Assembly: GCA_910588025.1 (NCBI GenBank)
Contig: CAJUQG010000002.1
Location: forward strand, 18,478-82,477
From: an uncultured Bacilli bacterium
GTDB lineage: Bacteria; Bacillota_I; Bacilli_A; RF39; UBA660
Reading direction: 5' to 3'
Length of the DNA stretch: 64,000 nt
Shown here: positions 8,538 through 50,821 of the stretch, piece by piece
How positions within the stretch are numbered: position 1 is the stretch's first letter
Layout: every line of letters begins with the position of its first letter
Notes under the pieces: generated by a model
Told to the model about the DNA's origin: nothing
Seen by the model: only the letters and a program-made list of their open reading frames with translations
The model's database searches: none
Made by a program: the position numbers and the translations under genes

Positions 8538-9425
8538 TTAATCAATTAATAATTCTTTTTCTTCATTAACTTGTTTTTGTAATAATTCTAATTCTTTGAT
8601 ATTCTTATTGTCTTTTAGTACTTTCATTTGTCTTCTTGCGGAATTATTAAGTCTTACTAATCTCTCACTTTGAGGTACTTTTTCTTCAATCAATTCAGCA
8701 TTCGTATTTTGAAGATTATTTAAAATTACTAAATGTAGTAAATCAGTATAATCTCTCATGTTACCTTCTTTTGCCAATTCTGGATTATTATCTCTCCATT
8801 CTTTAGCTGTCATACCAAATAATGCAACATTTAAAACATCTGCTTCTTCAGCATATACAAATTTCTTTTGAGCTTCAGTAAGAGTTGGAACTATATAAGT
8901 TTTTACTGCATCAGTATGAACTACATAATTTAATTTAGATAATAGTCTATTTGCTTGCCAATCAATTTTCTCCTGATATGCTTCATTACTTTTTAATCGT
9001 TCAAATTCTTTTATTAAATATAGCTTAAATTCAGGGCTTAACCAACTAGCAAATTCAAACGCAATATCTGGATGAGCAAAAGTTCCTTTACTATATTTTC
9101 CGCTACTTGGAATTATTCCAATAGCATTAAAATCCTTTTTCCAACGATTAGGTGTCATCGTAAAACGATTATATGGAGCCTCATCAATTTTAATTCTGTG
9201 AAATTCCACGGAATTAAAATCTTCATTATTAATTTCTTCCCATAAACTATAATAATCAAATGAATTTTTATTTGACATCCAATTTCTAATTACACCAGAT
9301 GGATCTTCAGAATTTGCTTGTCTAGCTAAATCAGTTAATGAAATATAATTTACATTACCTACTCTTAAAATTCCTACTTTATTTTCTTTTACTATTATCT
9401 CTGTAGTTACTATATCTTTTTTCAT
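8538..9425 (-). CDS. KilA-N domain protein (phage/mobile-element DNA-binding protein)
   Basis: The N-terminus ...NYISLTDLARQANSEDPSGVIRNWMSNKNSFDYYSLWEEINN is a typical KilA-N domain; the C-terminal half is coiled-coil-like. It lies inside the mobile-element remnant. Confidence 0.7.
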   Translation of the reverse strand: MKKDIVTTEIIVKENKVGILRVGNVNYISLTDLARQANSEDPSGVIRNWMSNKNSFDYYSLWEEINNEDFNSVEFHRIKIDEAPYNRFTMTPNRWKKDFNAIGIIPSSGKYSKGTFAHPDIAFEFASWLSPEFKLYLIKEFERLKSNEAYQEKIDWQANRLLSKLNYVVHTDAVKTYIVPTLTEAQKKFVYAEEADVLNVALFGMTAKEWRDNNPELAKEGNMRDYTDLLHLVILNNLQNTNAELIEEKVPQSERLVRLNNSARRQMKVLKDNKNIKELELLQKQVNEEKELLID

Positions 9426-9586
9426 TACATCACCTCACTTTTTTTAATTTTAAAAGGATGTTCACATACCATTGTTGTTTACATCCTTTATTTTTAGGGC
9501 ATTTAAGCCAAATTTTTAATTATTTACAAACAAATATGAATTTGTTAACATTTTTTAAATTTGCAAAATCCTAGCAGCCCATTTAT

Positions 9587-9636
9587 TTATCTCACTTTCC
9601 GCAGCAATTTTTGTACTTTTTGCCCGAACCACATGT
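9587..9636. repeat. imperfect direct copy of the secA 3' terminus (attachment-site repeat)
   Basis: TTATCTCACTTTCCGCAGCAATTTTTGTACTTTTTGCCCGAACCACATGT is about 38/50 identical to the true secA end at 12811..12860. On the minus strand it still encodes ...TCGSGKKYKNCCGK*, the SecA C-terminal zinc-finger tail, with synonymous changes. Confidence 0.75.
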
Positions 9637-9867
9637 TCTATCAAATTCAGTATTTATAGCACTTATGGTATTACTGGAATTATTGGTATTTTAGGGAAAA
9701 AGTGGTTCCGAAGTATCAGATATTTATGGTATTTATAGTACTATGATTACTATAAATATTTCATCCAATGGGAACAAAATGGGAACATTGTGCTCATTCG
9801 TTCACTAAATCCACTTAAATTATAAACTAAATAATAGATTCAATCAATAACAATGACAAATTGTGCT

Positions 9868-10429
9868 CTAAAAACGCCTTGATAATACACCAACAGTTCT
9901 TAATAAATCGCTTGAATTTTCATATGCATACTTTCGAACATCAAACACTATTTTTGTAAATAAACTATTAATCATTTTTACAAGTTTGATAAATGAACCA
10001 GCATATAGAGTTATCTCTTCATCATCGACTTTAAATGTATAGTCAAATAGAGATAAACTCCCACTTCCAGATGATTTTATTCTAACTCCATGCATCTTAT
10101 GTTGGTATTTATTTCTTACTTTTCTTATCTTTTCTAAAAAATCATAATTTTCTTTTAAAATTTCATTATAATCATTGCTTAAGTATTTTATCTGTTCATT
10201 GTATTCTAATAAACCATCACTGTTTTTAAATTCCAATTGTTTGGTTTTTTTGTTATATGAATATGGAATCAATCTGGGAATATTTTGAATAATTTCTAGT
10301 ATAAATTCTTCACCATTTTCAAAATCATCTATTACATCAATTCCACATAATTTTATTAATTTAATTTAAATGGTATAAAGTTTCAAAGTACCCAAAAAGT
10401 GCATTTGCTATTTCAACATTCATATGCAT
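9868..10429 (-). pseudogene. hypothetical protein with an Rx4H (HEPN-like) motif, interrupted by a +1 frame break; translationally coupled to the Fic gene
   Basis: A short frame MHMNVEIANALFGYFETLYHLN* starts at 10427-10429, 1 nt after the Fic stop. It is out of frame by +1 with the 134-aa ORF 9868..10272, which itself stays open upstream to about 10400 (IKLIKLCGIDVIDDFENGEEF...). The downstream part contains EKIRKVRNKYQHKMHG, which matches R-x4-H. Confidence 0.4.
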
Positions 10430-10430
10430 T

Positions 10431-11360
10431 TTACCTCAACAATTCTAAATATTTCTTTAATGTTTCTATTTCCAGTTTAACTATTAATTTAACAAAATCT
10501 GTATAATCACCAGTTGTATGAGCTTTATCTAATGCTTCATAATATTCTAATCTATCTTCCTTTTTTATTATTACTGGATTAAACCCATAATTCATTAAAT
10601 CTAAATTCATAAGTAACCTTGCAGTTCTACCATTACCATCTACAAATGGATGAATTTTAACTAATTCACCATGTAATAAAGCAGCTTGAATAATTGGATG
10701 AAAATCATTCCAATTTTCGTAATTTAAAACTAACTTTTCCATTAACTCTGGAACTTTCAAGTAATCTGGTGGGATATGAGTTGCACCTTTTATAGTAACA
10801 TTTTCTCTTCTATATCTTCCTGCATTTTCATCACCAATATCTTTTAAAACTAATTGATGAATACCTTTGATATTCCACTCAGTAATCGGGTTATCTTCTT
10901 TTACCAAATCGTTTAAATATAAAATAGCCTTTTCATGATTGATAGCTTCTAAATGCTCTTTTATTGATTTTCCACCAACTGTAATTCCTTCTAATACAAC
11001 TTGTGTTTCTCTAAGTGTCAAAGTATTTCCTTCTATACCATTACTATTGTATGTCCATTCAAGATTAATTGAATCTTCTAATGATCTTAATGTTTCTTTT
11101 GGTATCGGTCTTTTATTATCTAATTCTCTCTTCAACTCATCAACTTCATTAAAATAATTAGCCTCTAAATCAATAATAAATTCTGTAAAATCTGGTTTAA
11201 TAACTCTTTTGTCTACTGGTTTTATTGCATCAACTGGAATATTCCAACTGTTTCCGTTTTTAACAGCTCCTTCAATCCTGCCATCTTGTAATAATTGCCT
11301 TATTCTTCTTTCACTAATATTCCATTTTTTTACAGCTTCTTTAGTAGTCATAAAATCCAA
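10431..11360 (-). CDS. Fic-family protein (class II: N-terminal HTH plus SxxxEG inhibitory motif plus Fic core)
   Basis: Fic motif HPFVDGNGRTARLL. The inhibitory-helix motif is TYNSNGIEGNTLT. The N-terminal ~55 aa look like an excisionase-type HTH (MDFMTTKEAVKKWNISERRIRQLLQDGRIEGAV). Confidence 0.85.
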   Translation of the reverse strand: MDFMTTKEAVKKWNISERRIRQLLQDGRIEGAVKNGNSWNIPVDAIKPVDKRVIKPDFTEFIIDLEANYFNEVDELKRELDNKRPIPKETLRSLEDSINLEWTYNSNGIEGNTLTLRETQVVLEGITVGGKSIKEHLEAINHEKAILYLNDLVKEDNPITEWNIKGIHQLVLKDIGDENAGRYRRENVTIKGATHIPPDYLKVPELMEKLVLNYENWNDFHPIIQAALLHGELVKIHPFVDGNGRTARLLMNLDLMNYGFNPVIIKKEDRLEYYEALDKAHTTGDYTDFVKLIVKLEIETLKKYLELLR

Positions 11361-11426
11361 AACGCTTCACCTCTATATATCATTATACCGCTAACGGTAG
11401 TTTTGGTCAACCATATAAGACTAATT

Positions 11427-12631
11427 TTATCTATATTTAATAATTTCATCTATAATATCTGATTTAACTGTTTGTTCAAATTTTTCACTTGCTTCTTTAA
11501 GTGTTTCATCAGTTGTTGATATATAATAATTTTCAGTAGCTTCTATCTTGCTATGCCCTAAAATGTCAGCTACATCTCTAATTTCTACACCATTTCTTAG
11601 ACTCTTTGTTGCATAACTTCCTCGTAAGTCATAGAATCTGCAATGTTCTATTCCCAATTCTGTATGAACCACTTTATATGGATATTTCATAATATCAGTT
11701 CCACTATAAACACCATTTTCTTTTCTAAATACTAAATCAAGATTTTCCAACAATTTAGCTTTTCTAACTGTTTCAACAATTCTATATTCTATTATTTTTC
11801 CATATTTATTTTTAACTTCTTCTAGATGATAATAGTGATACATTTTACCATATAACTTTTTAAAATTTTCTTGTTTCCTTTTATAATTTTTTAGAGCTAC
11901 TAATAAAGTATTACAAATATATACTTTTCTTACTCCATTTATTGTTTTTGTTGTACCTAAAAACCATTTCCCCTTTTCATCTTTAACTTTACTATAAACA
12001 TTATGCTCTATACTAATTATTCTCTTTTCAAGATCAATATTATCCCAAGTTAGTGCACAGACTTCACCGGTTCTCATTCCTGTAAAACATGCAACTAGAA
12101 ATGCACAGGTGAATGTTTCATTATTTTTAAATCTCTTTAAAATAAAATTCAATTTCTTCTTGAGTATAAATATGCCTTATAGTCTTTCTTTAATTGTTCT
12201 ATGTGCGGCAAACTTATAGTTATTGCTGGATTATAATTAATAAATCCAAATATATCAGTTGCAACTCTAAATGAACATTTTATTACTTTTACAAAATTTT
12301 TTAAATATCCATAAGAATAATCATATCTTCTACATACATCTATTAAATATTTATTTAACTGATAACTTGTAATTGCATTAAGTCTATAATGACCTAAATA
12401 AATCTTTAAATACTTATTAACAATAACTGAATACTCTTCTATTGTTCTATATTTTAAATTCACTTTGCAATAATTATCTAGCCAATAATCCAAATAATCT
12501 CCATATGACATATAGCTTTCCGTTTTACATCCTCCATTTTGATATTCATCATAAGCTTTTTGTCCTGCGGTAAATGCAGCATTTTTTGTTTTAAATCCAC
12601 TTTCTTTTTCCATTAACTTTTGTTGCTTCAA
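11427..12631 (-). pseudogene. tyrosine site-specific integrase, split by a frameshift into an N-terminal part (12149..12631) and a catalytic part (11427..12152)
   Basis: The catalytic domain has R (FTGMRTGEV), H-x-x-R (HCRFYDLRGSYAT) and the Tyr region (LGHSKIEATENYYI). The N-terminal ORF is a SAM-like core-binding domain. The two frames overlap at an AAGAAGAAA tract near 12149-12165. Confidence 0.7.
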
Positions 12632-18000: not shown

Positions 18001-18332
18001 CTCTTCTACACCTCTCCTTCTTACTCTTTATTTACTGCTGATACTACTTTATCATGAATTCGTTTTCGTATACAATATAAACTATTCGACAAAATAAATG
18101 CATGCAATTGTCTTTAAAACTCATGATATAACTACCATATCTTAAAAATTTAAAGAAAAATGGTAACTTGTCTTAAATGATTTAAAATATGTCTGAAATA
18201 CATCTTGATATCATTTCACAAGACCACCTTTTCTTTTCGATTTTATTTTATGTTCTTCGAGTCTTAATTGAAATTTTTGAACCTTTTTTTCGATATAATG
18301 CAATTGTGTTACAAGAAAGGATAGTATTTTTA

Positions 18333-18947
18333 GTGAAAAAATGGTTTGTCGAAAATAGCTTTCAATTTATATCGAAATATCAACAATGTGATGATTTAAC
18401 AGAAAGAACAATTCGTTATGGATTAGAAACTTTGTATAATCTTTTTTCTAAACTGATTGTAATGCTTATTTTATCCATCTTTCTTGGAATATGGAAAGAA
18501 TATTTATTATTGGTAATTCTTTTTGCCAGTGCAAGACGATATGCTTATGGTCTTCATGCCAAAAAATCTTATCTTTGTTGGATTACTACTTTACCAATAT
18601 ATATTCTAGGTTGTTATTTCATTCGCTATGTAATGATTCCTCAGCCAATTATCTATATTCTATGGATTTTGGGATTTATATCTTTTGTGAAATGGGCACC
18701 AGCAGATACTCCAGCAAGACCATTAATTCATGTAGAATTAAGAAAGAAACAAAAGATTAAAGCTAGTATAATTTGTATTATTTATTTGATTTGTATTGTA
18801 GGATTTCAAAATCAATTGATTGCTAATGCTATTATTTATTGTTTAACGATCCAAGCGATTTGTATTAATCCTATTACTTATAAAATCACAAAAACACCTT
18901 TTGATAATTACAAATTATATTATGAAAAACATGGTTTAAATTATTGA
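18333..18947 (+). CDS. agrB: accessory gene regulator B (AgrD-processing membrane peptidase)
   Basis: ERTIRYGLETL... then RRYAYGLHAKKSYLCWITT, with catalytic His and Cys spaced as in AgrB. The likely GTG start at 18333 follows GAAAGG and gives 204 aa. The ORF track begins further upstream at 18189. Confidence 0.75.
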   Translation: MKKWFVENSFQFISKYQQCDDLTERTIRYGLETLYNLFSKLIVMLILSIFLGIWKEYLLLVILFASARRYAYGLHAKKSYLCWITTLPIYILGCYFIRYVMIPQPIIYILWILGFISFVKWAPADTPARPLIHVELRKKQKIKASIICIIYLICIVGFQNQLIANAIIYCLTIQAICINPITYKITKTPFDNYKLYYEKHGLNY

Positions 18948-18985
18948 TATAGATTTAAACAAATATAATTAAAGGAGGATTGTTC

Positions 18986-19102
18986 ATGAACTTTTTAGCA
19001 AATTTACTTTCTGGTACTGCATCTAAACTTGCAAATACTGGAAGCCAAGCAAGTGTTGGTTGGATTTGGGAAGAACCAGTTTGTCCAGAAGAAATTTTAT
19101 AA
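18986..19102 (+). CDS. agrD: AgrD-like autoinducing-peptide precursor (38 aa)
   Basis: MNFLANLLSGTASKLANTGSQASVGWIWEEPVCPEEIL. An AAAGGAGGA RBS lies 6 nt upstream. It has an amphipathic leader, an SVGWIW core and an acidic EEPxxPxEI tail, and sits immediately after agrB. Confidence 0.7.
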   Translation: MNFLANLLSGTASKLANTGSQASVGWIWEEPVCPEEIL

Positions 19103-19121
19103 TCAACTAGAGAAAGACAAA

Positions 19122-19157
19122 ATAAAAAAAGGTCAAGGCCATATGATCTTTTTTATT
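19122..19157. terminator. bidirectional rho-independent terminator between agrD and the convergent kinase gene
   Basis: AAAAAAAGGTCA-aggccata-TGATCTTTTTT: an A-tract, a stem with a G·U pair, then a T-tract. Confidence 0.5.
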
Positions 19158-20426
19158 TTACTTTTTTTCAATAATTATTTCATTAAAAAATAAATCATTA
19201 ATAATTGAGGTTTTTATTTTTAATTTTTTTCTTCCAATTAGAGAAAATAGTCCTATTCCGTGTCCTGTTTTTTTCGTTGTATATTTTAATGTTCCTAAGG
19301 CATCAATATCTAGAACAGTTTGGAATGTATTAATAATTTTTATGTGATAAGATTCTTCAGTTTCTTTCATATCAATCATTAAAATTTTTTCTTTCGTTTT
19401 TTCAGTAGCTTCTAGAGCATTATCTAATAAGATACCTAAGGCTTCACACAAGAGGTTATAACTTTTTGGGGTTAATTCATCATATACATTAGAATTAATA
19501 TTGTTATCAATTCCAATCGATAATTCATTGTTTTCAAAACCATATATCTTTTCATAAACAATTCCACTAATTCCCATGGGCATCTTTTGCATATTTTGAA
19601 TGGTTTTCGTATTTTGATTATATTCTTGAATTAAATCATTAATTAATTCTTGGCCTTTTTCATTTGAAACACTTTTCACACCGTTTAATTGATGAATTAG
19701 ATTATGTTTTAGCATTCGATAGTCATTAATAATTGTTAAATAAAACTCGTTGTTTCTAATTATATTTTCGTTGGTGACTTTTAATTCGTAATTATTATAT
19801 TCACGATTTAAAAACATGATTAAGAAAATAGTAATCGAAAAAAATAATAAATATATTTCTAAAGATAAAGAATTTAAACCAAATTTTTGGATAAAATCAT
19901 ATATTGTGAATCCTAAAGAGATTAAAACAATCATAATCAGTAAAAAGGAAAGATAAGGAAACTTAATTTTTTTCATATTTTTGTGTAATTTCGCAGACCA
20001 CTTTTTGATATGATTAGAATTTAATGTAAATAAAAGGATTGTTTCAACTACAATAGTATCAATAAATCGAATTTCTGTAATGCCAAAGGAAAAGAATTTA
20101 AAAGGAATAAGCGTTGAAAAAATCATAACTAAAATATCAATTATCATTCCTATAATACTAATCGTAGCGCCATAAAATATAATATCAAATACATCTTTTC
20201 GATATAATAAGTAATAAAGAACAAAATAAAAAAATAAGGATGTTAAGGTATTTAAAGTCATTAATTTAAAATGATATTCAAGGGTCATTATTAAAGCAAA
20301 GGGAATGATTAATAAATAAGATAAATAATGTACTTTTTTATCATGATTTGTTATTAATTTAAACCCAGTTGATACAGATAATTGAACTATGCAAGCTAAA
20401 AGAAAATAGATCACAAGATTTAGCAT
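19158..20426 (-). CDS. AgrC-like (HPK10) membrane sensor histidine kinase
   Basis: The N-terminal ~200 aa are polytopic. The H-box region is YRMLKHNLIHQLNG. The C-terminal GHKL ATPase has ...TGHGIGLFSL. Confidence 0.8.
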   Translation of the reverse strand: MLNLVIYFLLACIVQLSVSTGFKLITNHDKKVHYLSYLLIIPFALIMTLEYHFKLMTLNTLTSLFFYFVLYYLLYRKDVFDIIFYGATISIIGMIIDILVMIFSTLIPFKFFSFGITEIRFIDTIVVETILLFTLNSNHIKKWSAKLHKNMKKIKFPYLSFLLIMIVLISLGFTIYDFIQKFGLNSLSLEIYLLFFSITIFLIMFLNREYNNYELKVTNENIIRNNEFYLTIINDYRMLKHNLIHQLNGVKSVSNEKGQELINDLIQEYNQNTKTIQNMQKMPMGISGIVYEKIYGFENNELSIGIDNNINSNVYDELTPKSYNLLCEALGILLDNALEATEKTKEKILMIDMKETEESYHIKIINTFQTVLDIDALGTLKYTTKKTGHGIGLFSLIGRKKLKIKTSIINDLFFNEIIIEKK

Positions 20427-21142
20427 ACTCTTTCAACCTCCTTTTTATATTTTTTTGAAAGATATTCTACTTTTCCGCCATTGTCTAGCAAGAAATAGTT
20501 TTTAGGCCAATTCCATTCGTGAACTCTTTGACGATTGGCAATACAACTTCGATGAACTTGAATAAAGCGATCATCTAAAAGATTTACGATATCATTTAAG
20601 TTCATATTTAATTTAAAGACATTTGTATCTGTATGGACTAGTACTTTTCTTTCTTCTTTATCTCTTGTGATATGAGTAATCGCCCGATAGAAAATTTGTA
20701 AGTCAACATTACGATTTGATATACAGAGCATTTTATTATCAAAATTCTTTTGAAAAATCAGTTCTATATCTTTTTCTAATCGTTTTTCCATATCATAAAA
20801 TTTCTCTATAAAATTAAATACTTGGTAAACACTACGATAAACTGTTTCAAACATTTTGTCGTGAGAAGTTATGAATATAATTTCACTTTCCCAATCTTTT
20901 TCTCGAATCATTTTAGCAATCTCAATTCCACTAGTTTTGGTTTCTAATTCGATATCCATAATATACACTTTTCTAGTAGAATTGTCATCTATAATAGTTT
21001 TTAATTCACTTGTGTATTTTGTAAAATATTTGATATTAATGGTATTATCCTTGCTAATGATTACTCTTCTTAATACGTCTTTGATTGTTTCTTGGGTCTT
21101 TTTATCATCTTCAACCACAATAAAACTTGTCAAACTCATCAC
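20420..21142 (-). CDS. LytTR-family response regulator (AgrA-like)
   Basis: A receiver domain (VEDD...IMDIEL) plus a C-terminal LytTR DNA-binding domain (FIQVHRSCIANRQRV). It overlaps the kinase gene start. Confidence 0.85.
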   Translation of the reverse strand: MMSLTSFIVVEDDKKTQETIKDVLRRVIISKDNTINIKYFTKYTSELKTIIDDNSTRKVYIMDIELETKTSGIEIAKMIREKDWESEIIFITSHDKMFETVYRSVYQVFNFIEKFYDMEKRLEKDIELIFQKNFDNKMLCISNRNVDLQIFYRAITHITRDKEERKVLVHTDTNVFKLNMNLNDIVNLLDDRFIQVHRSCIANRQRVHEWNWPKNYFLLDNGGKVEYLSKKYKKEVERVC

Positions 21143-23548: not shown

Positions 23549-23746
23549 TTAAAGAATTCGACAAGAATTTAAGAAATCAAAGGTAAAATTCGTTAAAAGA
23601 TAACCCATTATGATACTAAGTATCATTACAAGTATTCTTGATTCCCAAATTTTATTTGTCTTCATCCATGAATCAAAATTAACTCCTGTTAAAGCATATG
23701 CACTAAGCATGACAAAAAAGACATATAAATATACTTTAATACTCAT
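23549..23746 (-). CDS. small membrane protein (65 aa, 2 TM), hypothetical
   Basis: ORF only; it overlaps the rpiB start region and may be spurious. Confidence 0.3.
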   Translation of the reverse strand: MSIKVYLYVFFVMLSAYALTGVNFDSWMKTNKIWESRILVMILSIIMGYLLTNFTFDFLNSCRIL

Positions 23747-25632: not shown

Positions 25633-26142
25633 TTATTTCATATGAAGTATATGTTTTATTTTTCCAGCAAAGAATACGAGTCCATCACTTTTTTTCATAG
25701 CAATTTGCTTTCCAATGGCTTTACCACCAACAGTTAAGGCTGAAATAAATGAAGTAACTAGTACCGTAACCCATATTCCATTTGCATTTAATTTTAAAGT
25801 AAGATAAGCTGTTAAAACGGCACCCAGAGATCCACTTACAATTCCACAAATATCACCGATTACATCGTTACAAACACTTGATACGACATTTCCATTTCTA
25901 AGTAAGGATATTGCTTCTTTTGCTCCAGCAATTTTTTTGGAGGACATGGCATGAAAACTTGATTCTTTACTTGTTAGCGCTGCTACACCAATCATATCAA
26001 ATAAGATACCTATAAAAATAACAAGGGTCATAATAAATAATAATATTACAACATTCATATCACTACAAAAACTAGTTAAAGCACTAAAAATAGCTGCTAA
26101 GAAAAAAGATAAACAAAATACTTTGAATGGCCAATATTTCAT
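25633..26142 (-). CDS. small integral membrane protein (169 aa, 4 TM, DVIGD = DxxxD motif), OapA-like candidate
   Basis: Four hydrophobic spans. The motif CNDVIGDICGIVSG lies in the third span. A GAGGTG RBS sits 6 nt before the ATG at 26140-26142. A ~525-nt transcribed ORF-free leader lies immediately upstream. Confidence 0.6.
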   Translation of the reverse strand: MKYWPFKVFCLSFFLAAIFSALTSFCSDMNVVILLFIMTLVIFIGILFDMIGVAALTSKESSFHAMSSKKIAGAKEAISLLRNGNVVSSVCNDVIGDICGIVSGSLGAVLTAYLTLKLNANGIWVTVLVTSFISALTVGGKAIGKQIAMKKSDGLVFFAGKIKHILHMK

Positions 26143-26159
26143 TTCATACACCTCTTTTT

Positions 26160-26702
26160 ATTTTATCAAGAAAAAAGATTCTTTTTAAGAACCTTTTAAG
26201 CTACAATGGTTTTTGTTGTGGTAAATTATAAATTAATTTTACGGCTTAGGTCGAGTTGAATTTCTCTACTTTCTACCTTTGGTTACCCGAGGGCGATTTC
26301 TCTTTCAAGAAAGCAACTAAGTGTTACCAGCTTAATTACTCGATTACCACTGAGTCCGCACTTTAATCCTTATAATTATAACATTCTAGAGGTTTTCCCT
26401 GACACCCACTATCCAATACTTATTCGCTTTTGCAAATACGATTTTGATAATCATCTATTTGATCGGGAATAGACTTTATTCATTATCTCCCACGTATTCA
26501 CTCACGACATGCACTTTTTTTATTTCTTGCGGGATTTTAGGAGATTCATTATATGCCATTATAACTTTCCTAAAATCTTAAATTATATAACCACCCCAAC
26601 TTGGGCAGAAGAAGCGAATTATATAAAGTGCTTTTCATGCAATTGGTAGATTTTTAGCCCTACCTTCATATTGTGTGTGTGACTAGAATAATGCACCACA
26701 TG
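26160..26702 (-). ncRNA. large structured noncoding RNA candidate (~525 nt, about 40% GC versus about 27% in the flanks), possibly an OLE-type RNA
   Basis: No ORF longer than 26 codons on either strand. GC is locally elevated (for example GGTTACCCGAGGGCGATTTC, CCACTGAGTCCGCAC). A consensus sigma-A promoter lies at its 5' end and a terminator at its 3' end. It sits immediately upstream of a 4-TM DxxxD protein. Confidence 0.45.
26168..26197 (-). terminator. intrinsic terminator/attenuator at the 3' end of the large noncoding transcript, just upstream of the membrane-protein RBS
   Basis: Minus strand GGTTCTT-AAA-AAGAATC followed by TTTTTT: a 7-bp stem with one G·U pair. Confidence 0.55.
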
Positions 26703-26709
26703 ACAATGA

Positions 26710-26738
26710 ATTATACACTATTTTTACTTTTTTGTCAA
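26710..26738 (-). promoter_or_regulatory. consensus sigma-A promoter TTGACA-N17-TATAAT driving the large ncRNA/leader
   Basis: Minus strand: TTGACA aaaaagtaaaaatagtg TATAAT. The -35 hexamer is plus-strand 26733-26738 and the -10 hexamer is 26710-26715. Confidence 0.7.
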
Positions 26739-44159: not shown

Positions 44160-44426
44160 TTATAAACTTAACATCGGAAAAAAGTCAAGAAATAACGGGT
44201 TATACACAAATTCACAATGATGTTTATAAGATTACACATTATCAACGTTGATAATTTTTCTATGTTGATAGTTTTATAAAACAAAGTTGTGGATAATGTT
44301 GATAAGTATATTTTTATCTGTTAGAATATGACTTCTAGAGCGTTGATAGATTGTGAAATCAATGTGAATTGCTGTTTCATACTTGTTTTTAAAATCACAA
44401 CTGCGTTAAAATGAAGTTGATAAAAC
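44160..44426. promoter_or_regulatory. oriC DnaA-box cluster upstream of dnaA
   Basis: One perfect TGTGGATAA at 44288-44296. Several TTATCAAC/GTTGATAA-type variants at 44200, 44240, 44249, 44262, 44297, 44342 and 44416. Confidence 0.7.
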
Positions 44427-45830: not shown

Positions 45831-45975
45831 TTGTGGATAAAATTATGAAATCTGAATAAACATCCACATCCAATTTTTAAAATTGGCTTAGCAAATATCT
45901 AAAATTTATGAGCTATGCACATTATAAACGACATTATTATAACTAATATAAATATGAATAAAAAAGAAAGAAGGA
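45831..45975. promoter_or_regulatory. second oriC segment (DnaA boxes plus AT-rich unwinding element) between dnaA and dnaN
   Basis: Perfect TGTGGATAA at 45832-45840, a degenerate CATCCACAT, then a more than 80% AT stretch. Confidence 0.6.
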
Positions 45976-47100
45976 ATGAAAATGAAATTTTCAATTGATA
46001 AAAATATAATTTTAGAAAATTTAAGTAATGTAATAAAAGGAGTATCGACAAAGAACGTAATTCCAGTTTTAAATGGAATAAAGTTTGAATTAAGAAGTGA
46101 AGGTTTGTATTTAACGGCAAGTGATTCAGAACTAGTTATTCAATCATTTATTGAAAGAAAGCTAATTAAAAATGTGGATAACGAGGGAGTTATTATTATA
46201 GGAAGTAAATACATTTTAGAAATTTTAAGAAAAATGCCAAGTGATGTGATTAACTTTGAAGTTATCGACAGTTTAAAAATAAAAATTTACTCCGATTTTA
46301 ATCAATATAACTTAAATTGTTTAGATCCAAGTGAATATCCTAATTTACGTTTAGAAGAACACAAAGATCCTATCGTTTTACAAGGGGAATTGTTTAAAAG
46401 TATTATAAATCAAACGAGTTTTGCGATTTCTACTCAGGAACTGCGTCCATTATTAACTGGAGTTAATATTAAAATTACAGGTGATTTATTAGAATGTATA
46501 GCAACGGATTCCTATCGTTTAGCAAAAAAGAATATTAAATTAGAAAATCCAATTGTTACTGATGTGAATATTGTAATTCCAGGTAAAAATGTGATAGAGT
46601 TAGAAAAAATTATTGTGGATAATGAAAATATTGAAATGCATATTTTTAATAATAAAGTATTATTTAAATATAAAAATATTATTTTTCAAACAAATTTATT
46701 GTCTGGAACATATCCTAATACTTCTAATTTAATTCCAACTGAGTTTGAAATTATTGTTCAAACTAAAAAAGATGAATTTTCATCAGCTGTAGATCGTGCA
46801 GCATTACTTACACAAGGAAAAGATAAAAATATTATTAAAATGCGCATTGAAAATAAAGAGATGATTATTAATTCTTATGCTTCTGAAATAGGTAAGACAG
46901 AAGAACGTTTAATGGTAGAAACAAGTGAAAATTCTAATATTGATATTTCATTTAGTGCAAAATACATGTTGGATGCTTTAAAAACTTTAAAAGATGAAGA
47001 TATTTTAATTTTATTAAATAATGATGTTAAACCAATTGTTATGAAATCATTAAAAGATGAGTCACTAATTCAATTAATTTTACCAATTAAAACTTATTAA
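45976..47100 (+). CDS. dnaN: DNA polymerase III beta sliding clamp
   Basis: 374 aa, three-domain clamp. Confidence 0.9.
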   Translation: MKMKFSIDKNIILENLSNVIKGVSTKNVIPVLNGIKFELRSEGLYLTASDSELVIQSFIERKLIKNVDNEGVIIIGSKYILEILRKMPSDVINFEVIDSLKIKIYSDFNQYNLNCLDPSEYPNLRLEEHKDPIVLQGELFKSIINQTSFAISTQELRPLLTGVNIKITGDLLECIATDSYRLAKKNIKLENPIVTDVNIVIPGKNVIELEKIIVDNENIEMHIFNNKVLFKYKNIIFQTNLLSGTYPNTSNLIPTEFEIIVQTKKDEFSSAVDRAALLTQGKDKNIIKMRIENKEMIINSYASEIGKTEERLMVETSENSNIDISFSAKYMLDALKTLKDEDILILLNNDVKPIVMKSLKDESLIQLILPIKTY

Positions 47101-47104
47101 TTTT

Positions 47105-47127
47105 GAGATATTTTTATCTCTTTTTTT
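47105..47127 (+). terminator. rho-independent terminator of dnaN
   Basis: GAGATA-tttt-TATCTC followed by TTTTTTT. Confidence 0.6.
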
Positions 47128-47261
47128 GTGATTATGCTTTGATTTTCATGTCATTTTGTAAATTTAATTAAAAAAATTGTTTTCTGGGTCTTTTTTCGAC
47201 AAAAAAAATCCTATTTACCCTTTATTATAAACGGCAATTTTCCGAGTTAGGGGGTGAAAAG

Positions 47262-47720
47262 ATGGAAAGTTATGAGATAAATAAAGATACCTTAGCTTTA
47301 ATTGCATTAAAAGATAAAACAGAAGTGTTTGAAGAAAATGATCATTTTTTTGTAGATAAAGTGGCGAACGAAATTATGGAAGCAAGTTGCGAGTATTTTG
47401 GAAGTTCGTTAGCAGGTAGACAAAAAGGAACAGAAAATTTAATTGGTAGTACTTATAAGGCTCCAGTTATTGTAGAAGAGTCTCAAGAAATAATCTTTTT
47501 TCCAACAGAATCTCCAAGACGAGAAGAGTGTTCATGGATTTCTTTACAAAAAATCAATAAATATTTTAGAATGGGTGATAAAATAGTTGTAGAGTTTAAA
47601 AACGGAAGTAGAGTAGTTCTAAATATTTCTTATGGAAAACTGGATAATCAAGTCATGCGCGCAACTCGATTAGAATCAGTTTTAAGAGGAAGAAAATACG
47701 ATAAAAATAGTTTTAAATAA
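47262..47720 (+). CDS. comK: ComK-family competence transcription factor homologue
   Basis: ESYEINKDTLALI..., CEYFGSSLAGRQKGTENLIGSTYKAPVIVEESQEIIFFPTES..., ECSWISLQKIN..., FKNGSRVVLNISYGKLDNQVMRATRLESV. These align block-by-block with B. subtilis ComK. Confidence 0.7.
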   Translation: MESYEINKDTLALIALKDKTEVFEENDHFFVDKVANEIMEASCEYFGSSLAGRQKGTENLIGSTYKAPVIVEESQEIIFFPTESPRREECSWISLQKINKYFRMGDKIVVEFKNGSRVVLNISYGKLDNQVMRATRLESVLRGRKYDKNSFK

Positions 47721-47805
47721 CTTATTCGTGTGTTATAATGTTGATAGGTATAGAGGTACATATATACCTATTATTTTTGTATATGGCTTAAAAAGAGGCA
47801 AAATT

Positions 47806-50821
<3,016 letters not shown>

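Follow-up and report, generated by a model that had tools for sequence, protein, structure and literature searches.

RESULTS

Gene organization of the origin region

The window, by which we mean the whole 64,000-nt stretch of DNA analysed here, contains a replication origin with the gene order jag < yidC < rnpA < (oriC) > dnaA > dnaN > comK > recF > gyrB > gyrA (Table 1). The GC skew of the window changes sign at ~44 kb, and canonical DnaA boxes (TTATCCACA, TTATCAACA and TTATACACA) are grouped at 44200-44350 and at 45832, flanking dnaA; taken together, the skew flip and the boxes around dnaA identify the region as the chromosomal origin of a Firmicute of ~28% GC.

Between the dnaN stop codon (47100) and the recF ATG (47806) lies a single open reading frame of at least 40 amino acids, which encodes a protein of 152 residues. 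This ORF, noticed in the original prediction, is real, and the accompanying proposal that it occupies the slot of a missing yaaA gene is borne out: a scan of the dnaN-recF gap revealed no S4/yaaA-like ORF and, besides comK, no contained ORF longer than 37 amino acids. The recF frame can also be read from a GTG start that lies within the gap. The cluster retains the order of dnaA, dnaN, recF, gyrB and gyrA found in the canonical Firmicute arrangement, dnaA-dnaN-yaaA(rlbA)-recF-remB-gyrB-gyrA, but differs from it in having comK in place of yaaA and in the absence of remB, since recF overlaps the start of gyrB.

Table 1. Features of the dnaA-recF region, with positions in the window
Feature	Position	Strand	Basis
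dnaA	44427-45830	+	ORF call
dnaN (sliding clamp), 5' neighbour of comK	45976-47100	+	ORF call; tblastn orthologues; Pfam DNA_pol3_beta on orthologues
Hairpin GAGATA-TTTT-TATCTC plus T7, terminator-like, immediately 3' of the dnaN stop	47105-47127	+	-6.1 kcal/mol, z = -2.6
A4-N5-T4 tract: chance-level AT-box, not a conserved K-box	47171-47183	.	Window count and orthologues
TTCGACA box, 21 nt 5' of the -10-like hexamer TATTAT (47223-47228)	47195-47201	+	Motif and conservation
-10-like region TATTATAAA of the putative comK promoter	47223-47231	+	Conserved register in orthologues
Ribosome-binding site AGGGGGTG, 5 nt 5' of the comK ATG	47249-47256	+	Sequence
comK, short-form ComK-family gene, 152 aa	47262-47720	+	ORF and Pfam PF06338
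Extended -10 promoter TGTTATAAT for recF-gyrB-gyrA, 10 nt past the comK stop	47731-47739	+	Conservation
recF leader hairpin (47742-47752 paired with 47763-47773), then T5	47742-47778	+	-13.9 kcal/mol, z = -2.1
recF leader motif TAGGTATAGAGGTAC, inside the hairpin	47745-47759	+	Conservation
recF, overlapping the gyrB start (48899)	47806-48906	+	ORF call

The gene in the dnaN-recF gap encodes a short-form ComK

The 152-aa protein belongs firmly to the ComK family, as had been proposed from its peptide blocks, all of which are found in the translation: the Pfam ComK model PF06338 matches it with E=4.5e-41 and 140.6 bits (cutoff 22.3) over model positions 1-149 of 152, and the same domain is present in all of its homologues. 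The family call itself is ordinary, annotation pipelines already naming these MAG proteins ComK. An NCBIfam scan and a PDB sequence search with the 152-aa protein returned no significant match.

Alignment with a 192-aa Bacillus-type ComK (P0264), which we take to be close to B. subtilis ComK, gives 34% identity (E=1e-27) over residues 10-157 of P0264; a further protein of the same length (P0185) carries the NCBI name ComK [Bacillus]. The window protein and B. subtilis ComK (192 aa) belong to the same family over the whole Pfam domain. In this alignment the window protein ends ~8 residues past the aligned core, so that ~35-40 C-terminal residues of the Bacillus-type protein are absent. A profile search of 1.84 billion representatives recovered 1500 family members at E<=1e-3, of which 802 remain at E<=1e-10. 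By length these members form two classes, one of ~146-157 aa, to which the window protein belongs, and another of ~190-200 aa corresponding to the Bacillus type. The short form comprises 4142 sequence clusters at E<=1e-10.

In B. subtilis ComK the C-terminal tail carries the targeting motif for post-translational control by MecA/ClpCP and ComS. The region missing from the window protein is also the one needed for comG activation, as B. subtilis ComK lacking its last 25 residues loses comGA activation while DNA binding is kept (PMC3128618). A precedent is B. cereus ComK2, which is likewise naturally short, lacks the C-terminal activation region and lowers comG expression instead of raising it (PMC3128618). 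However, ComK2 coexists with a full-length ComK1, whereas no ComK other than the short form is seen at the present locus, and in this clade the short form spans thousands of sequence clusters. Given the absence of the activation tail, the short form may act differently from canonical ComK, be it as activator, anti-repressor or repressor, and may recognise a different DNA site; its equivalence to the canonical activator is not firm. Solved LytTR domains resemble the predicted fold of the ComK-like protein in a structure comparison, and the short-form ComK is predicted to be a DNA-binding transcription factor with a LytTR-like beta fold.

The dnaN-comK-recF arrangement is conserved across a large clade

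The synteny of dnaN, comK and recF in related genomes, which the original prediction named as a point to check, was found to hold. A genome scan yielded 17 loci from uncultured MAGs of mouse, rabbit, rumen and human gut, labelled Bacilli, Erysipelotrichaceae, Bacillales or Clostridia bacterium, in which the identity of ComK to the window protein ranges from 93% to 38% and that of DnaA among the loci falls as low as 48%. The comK gene lies directly 3' of dnaN in 17/17 of these and directly 5' of recF in all 15 with enough sequence (L001 and L017 end too early). A metagenome scan with a clade profile added 80 further loci, giving 97 overall: dnaN is upstream of comK in 78/85 loci with at least 700 bp of upstream flank, and recF is downstream in 72/77 with at least 500 bp of downstream flank. 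Conservation of the dnaN-comK-recF arrangement thus extends over a large clade of Bacilli from guts and fermenters that are uncultured, low in GC and endospore-forming. The view that it is unusual stands in comparison with model Firmicutes, but not as a peculiarity of one genome, as it is clade-wide.

Between dnaN and comK the median distance is 132 bp, but genes of 0.57-2.15 kb are inserted there in six loci; L003, for instance, has one for a dCMP deaminase (ComEB-like) and L041 an ORF of 600 aa. In the three insertion loci inspected (L003, L041 and L031) the comK promoter region remains joined to comK. The comK-recF gap measures 63-246 bp and holds an inserted gene in none of 79 loci. Six loci have comK away from the origin, and in two of these (L058 and L076) it is convergent with ligA-pcrA; more distant matches show the same two contexts, origin-linked or ligA-linked. 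In a neighbour-joining tree, which took in four of the six non-origin copies, these four (L045, L058, L064 and L092) form one clade nested among the origin-linked copies. Such a single nested clade suggests one relocation event, and a nested subclade with comK beside ligA indicates that the origin position is not obligatory.

Neither the dnaN-comK-recF arrangement nor ComK in this lineage was found described in a full-text literature search, and no joint mention of ComK with Erysipelotrichales was found; the papers in which ComK, dnaN and recF occur together concern, by their titles and abstracts, unrelated subjects. What is new here is the clade-wide origin address, the radiation of the short form and the phased 0A-type promoter module described below.

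comK and recF-gyrB-gyrA are separate transcription units

Immediately past the dnaN stop codon lies a terminator-like hairpin, which a consensus scan missed because its stem is AT-rich; at most orthologous loci a stronger hairpin with a T-run occupies the same place. A generic promoter and terminator scan gave matches not above those in shuffled sequences and is uninformative in DNA of 28% GC. The comK promoter is suggested by a -10-like region, assigned from its conservation, as TTATTATA or TATAAG, at the same register in orthologues, and no -35 element is found upstream of it at a 17-bp spacing. The ribosome-binding site is typical of the clade, with GGGAGGT and AGGGAGG among the most enriched 7-mers upstream of comK orthologues.

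Downstream of comK, 65 of the 68 unique comK-recF spacers share an extended -10 element of the TGnTATAAT type (T[GA]nTA[TC]A[AC]T) at an unchanged location; the promoter scan, whose output was not above shuffles, also has a match there at 47712-47739. Many orthologues have a separate comK terminator ahead of this extended -10. In the window genome the hairpin of the recF leader probably also terminates comK transcription. The leader contains a motif, GGTAT(A/G)GGAGTAC, that is nearly invariant across loci. Two classes of leader hairpin occur, with different pairing partners, and the motif is kept in both; no consensus RNA structure spans the two classes. Searches of Rfam, at the gathering threshold over the window and at an E-value threshold over 47080-47830, gave no family for the comK or recF leader, and occurrences of the recF-leader motif elsewhere in the window are not above chance.

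These features show that comK is its own transcription unit and that recF-gyrBA has its own promoter. The suggestion that comK is hard-wired into an oriC operon is not supported, in view of the hairpin 3' of dnaN, comK's own promoter region and the conserved extended -10 of recF.

Phased TTCGACA boxes precede comK

Apart from 7-mers of the ribosome-binding site, TTCGACA and TCGACAA are the most enriched in 71 unique comK upstream regions, exceeding background 63- to 68-fold. Their core, TCGAC, is strongly oriented, occurring 100 times on the coding strand compared with 7 on the other, and pairs of cores lie at only two distances, 10 bp (21 pairs) or 20 bp (27 pairs), with A/T flanks. At least two boxes are present in 34 of the 71 unique upstream regions, and the window itself has a single strict box. 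No strict TCGAC is found in 13 of the 71, and at least one lineage, that of L098-L100, lacks any box.

The boxes are closely tied to comK. Phased TCGAC pairs number 58 within 160 bp upstream of comK, as against 1 elsewhere (643 kb, both strands), this lone pair lying in the oriC region of L042. Box arrays also precede relocated copies of comK, with four tandem boxes in L043 and three in L076, which indicates that the boxes are a feature of comK, not of the origin. Measured from the conserved -10, which reads TATAAG or TATTAT and is frequently accompanied by TG, they are located 11, 21 or 31 nt 5'.

Two simpler identities for the repeats were rejected. As a plain -35 hexamer they would be misplaced, the spacers to the -10 being 11, 21 or 31 nt and never 16-18. 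As DnaA boxes they would be out of place, given that canonical TTATCCACA/TTATCAACA boxes gather round dnaA and not upstream of comK, and that the arrays accompany relocated comK copies as well.

DISCUSSION

Spo0A as the candidate regulator of comK

Read on the opposite strand, the TTCGACA box gives TGTCGAA, the core of the Spo0A 0A box, and its arrangement resembles that at known Spo0A-dependent promoters. The tandem 0A boxes of abrB are 10 bp apart, alike in spacing to the boxes of this clade, which are 10 or 20 bp apart. At the Spo0A-dependent sigma-A promoters of spoIIG and spoIIE the 0A boxes overlap a -35-like element 21-22 bp from the -10, a geometry similar to that of the window, where the TCGACA box lies 21 nt from TATTAT. 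The regulated gene here is a ComK homologue, which sets the clade promoter, with its putative Spo0A site, apart from those promoters. The presence of SpoIID, SpoIIR and SpoVT among the proteins encoded in the window (Pfam), and of BofA in relatives, indicates that the hosts are endospore formers, and endospore formers as a rule carry spo0A.

The core of the 0A box has A/T flanks and contact bases at G2, C4 and G5, and the Spo0A proteins of Bacillus and C. difficile recognise it equally (PMC3485338). A direct link between Spo0A and comK also has precedent: the comK promoter of B. subtilis, PcomK, has five degenerate sites to which Spo0A~P binds directly, activating the promoter first and then repressing it (PMC3297582). 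The comK promoter of the window has a site of the 0A type, as judged from its sequence. The two promoters differ in that the clade has consensus, phased 0A-type boxes, whereas B. subtilis comK has five degenerate sites together with sites for ComK, Rok, CodY and AbrB. We consider it somewhat more likely than not that Spo0A is the protein that binds the TTCGACA boxes.

Alternatively, the boxes could be bound by another regulator, either the short ComK itself, which would then be auto-regulatory through a site specific to the lineage, or a response regulator of the OmpR/PhoB type. Arrays that move with relocated comK are what would be expected of an auto-regulatory site, and the LytTR-like fold predicted for the protein favours such a role, as LytTR-fold proteins bind direct repeats. 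LytTR sites are 9-bp repeats ~21 bp apart, however, and B. subtilis ComK recognises A/T tracts. Helically phased same-strand repeats are typical of winged-helix response regulators, and those of the OmpR/PhoB type bind direct repeats with a 10-11 bp period, typically with a TGTC core. Against any binder other than Spo0A stand the commonest 7-mer, which is the exact complement of the 0A box with its A/T flanks, and the strict 10-bp period, which is that of the tandem 0A boxes of abrB. We regard a different binder as unlikely, though by no means negligible.

A proposed mechanism for the origin-proximal ComK

The reading that best accommodates these observations, and to which we would give somewhat better than even chances, is that of a Spo0A-gated, origin-proximal switch of the ComK type. 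The comK gene is its own unit between dnaA-dnaN, with dnaN ending in a terminator, and recF-gyrB-gyrA. Its putative promoter has a -10 without a proper -35, preceded by one to four same-strand TTCGACA boxes spaced exactly 10 bp apart, and phosphorylated Spo0A is the protein most likely to occupy them. As the master regulator of stationary phase and sporulation, Spo0A would then set the timing of ComK production, an arrangement that would resemble the Spo0A gate of B. subtilis comK but be stronger and simpler than it. The short ComK would most likely control genes of DNA uptake and recombination located elsewhere in the genome. No comG, comE, comF or other com genes were recognised in the 64-kb window (ORF translations, with Pfam searches of ten ORFs), and it is membership of the ComK family on which a role in competence, and the candidacy of competence genes as targets of the short form, would be based.

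Adjacency to the origin would give comK the highest and earliest copy number on the chromosome and could make the switch sensitive to the state of replication. A comparable position is known from S. pneumoniae, where comCDE is located at -1 degree from oriC and a rise in its copy number under replication stress triggers competence (PMC5034851). The logic there is unrelated, being built from peptide quorum sensing, a two-component system and sigma X, and the likeness of origin position is an analogy rather than evidence; a gene-dosage role for the position of comK is conjecture.

A bolder form of this model would have the tail-less ComK and the phased Spo0A boxes form a switch that reads both the replication state, as copy number, and Spo0A~P, with the origin position being functional. 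Such a switch would link the sporulation decision to DNA uptake and repair, perhaps with recF-gyrBA among the genes concerned, and would represent a convergent, hard-wired competence circuit of a large uncultured gut lineage, without K-boxes and probably without MecA/ComS. We put it forward as a speculation that is unlikely to hold.

A different proposal is that the ComK-like protein is no competence regulator but a clade-specific regulator of chromosome maintenance, acting for example on recF-gyrB-gyrA or on replication and repair genes, and that its position reflects this function. This would be in keeping with the short comK-recF gap (63-246 bp), which never contains an inserted gene, with the conserved GGTAT(A/G)GGAGTAC at the start of the recF leader, with the absence of the activation tail from the protein, and with the alternative context of comK, which is also beside genes of DNA repair and replication (ligA, pcrA and rmuC). 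However, the genes of the ligA context are convergent with comK, which precludes co-transcription, and the recF-leader motif was not found beside relocated comK copies. Moreover, all characterised ComK proteins, as far as we know and as described in the literature (PMC3128618), govern genes of DNA uptake. On this evidence we hold a maintenance regulator to be improbable.

On the original prediction, the gene would encode a canonical ComK that lies within the origin operon and may activate its own promoter by way of K-boxes. A K-box is defined as two A4N5T4 boxes spaced 8, 18 or 31 bp apart. Of the tracts reported upstream of comK, an A4-N5-T4 does exist (Table 1), but at chance frequency (35 A4N5T4 observed in the window as against 38.7 expected), and T4-N5-A4 is no AT-box. 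The best K-box-like pair, at 47172/47203, has the type II spacer of 18 with two mismatches; the window as a whole contains 12 such pairs. Pairs of this kind are ~7 times commoner upstream of comK (9/72 unique orthologous upstream regions) than in average 160-bp windows (1.8%); their positions vary, however, and most overlap A/T runs in the terminator of dnaN. L001, an orthologue with 93% identity, lacks the pair, and pairs are missing from 63/72 upstream regions, so that K-boxes were rejected as a conserved feature of the comK promoter. The window gene departs from B. subtilis comK both in being adjacent to the origin and in having no conserved K-boxes. Largely refuted by this lack of conservation, and facing in its operon part the hairpin past dnaN, the conserved recF promoter and the comK terminator of many orthologues, a K-box-driven auto-regulation of comK is highly improbable.

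Implications

ComK is the textbook master switch of natural transformation in Bacillus, and to our knowledge almost nothing is known of it outside a few cultured Bacillales. The family is seen here to include a very large radiation of short forms, most members of which share one address beside the origin and a common promoter module of the Spo0A type. The pairing of a cis-element with a protein lends itself to in vitro tests that need no culture of the hosts. Should the clade prove to be transformable under Spo0A control, this would bear on horizontal gene transfer in the gut, that of resistance genes included, and would provide a second, independent case of a competence switch located at the origin.

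The recF-gyrBA leader and the dnaN-comK interval

Downstream of comK, the recF-gyrB-gyrA operon carries a conserved leader in which an extended -10 element is followed in turn by the motif GGTAT(A/G)GGAGTAC, by a hairpin and by a run of T residues. The hairpins fall into two classes that retain the motif and differ in its pairing partner. No Rfam family matched the leader, and a consensus structure was not found across loci of both hairpin classes. Attenuation, 5'-end stabilisation and protein binding are possible roles for the leader.

On the other side of comK, a putative dCMP-deaminase (ComEB-like) gene was identified by eye between dnaN and comK in L003, one of the homologous comK-bearing loci, and other loci carry unrelated insertions at the same spot. 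In another such locus, L101 (FZPS01000227.1, a 2.03 Mb record from a 'Mollicutes bacterium' MAG), ligA is followed directly by gyrA-gyrB, while other contigs with the same ComK have pcrA in their place beside ligA; the record is long and may have been joined by scaffolding or be chimeric.

TCGAC-containing boxes away from comK

The 7-mer TTCGACA, the reverse complement of the Spo0A 0A-box core, is 2.5-fold over-represented in the window (15 observed, 5.9 expected), with copies near agrB and spoIID. AgrB was assigned by Pfam, and on the opposite strand of this agr-like locus the translations, read by eye, include two putative partners, a histidine kinase and a response regulator of the LytTR type. 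Away from comK, a phased TCGAC-N5-TCGAC pair was found just once, in the oriC region of locus L042; it is reminiscent of the 0A boxes carried by B. subtilis oriC.

Features near comK and elsewhere (window coordinates unless a locus is named)
Feature	Position	Strand	Context or basis
Candidate mobile-element remnant	8538-12631	-	adjoins secA; reading of ORF translations only
Putative split integrase	11427-12152, 12149-12631		two overlapping ORFs
TTCGACA box, single	18085-18091		~100 bp upstream of agrB
agr-like locus	18189-21142		AgrB by Pfam; partner genes by eye
TTCGACA box	23557-23563		immediately 5' of spoIID
172-aa membrane-protein ORF	25633-26151		flanks OLE RNA; ORF, Pfam scan
OLE RNA, full-length	26202-26715	-	Rfam scan of window, 242.7 bits
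recF-gyrBA leader, conserved	47742-47778		equivalent position in ~65 loci
Putative dCMP-deaminase gene	L003 5358-6000		between dnaN and comK
TCGAC-N5-TCGAC phased pair	L042 1005-1019		between rnpA and dnaA, oriC region

Other elements of the window

The region adjoining secA is possibly a mobile-element remnant, as judged from its translations alone, where the putative integrase is accompanied by one ORF resembling an antirepressor and another with an apparent Fic domain. Elsewhere, an ornate large extremophilic (OLE) RNA is flanked by a membrane-protein ORF that gave no match in a Pfam scan and by a GDSL-lipase-like ORF (Pfam scan). The presence of OLE RNA is noteworthy for a lineage of gut spore-forming Bacilli MAGs.
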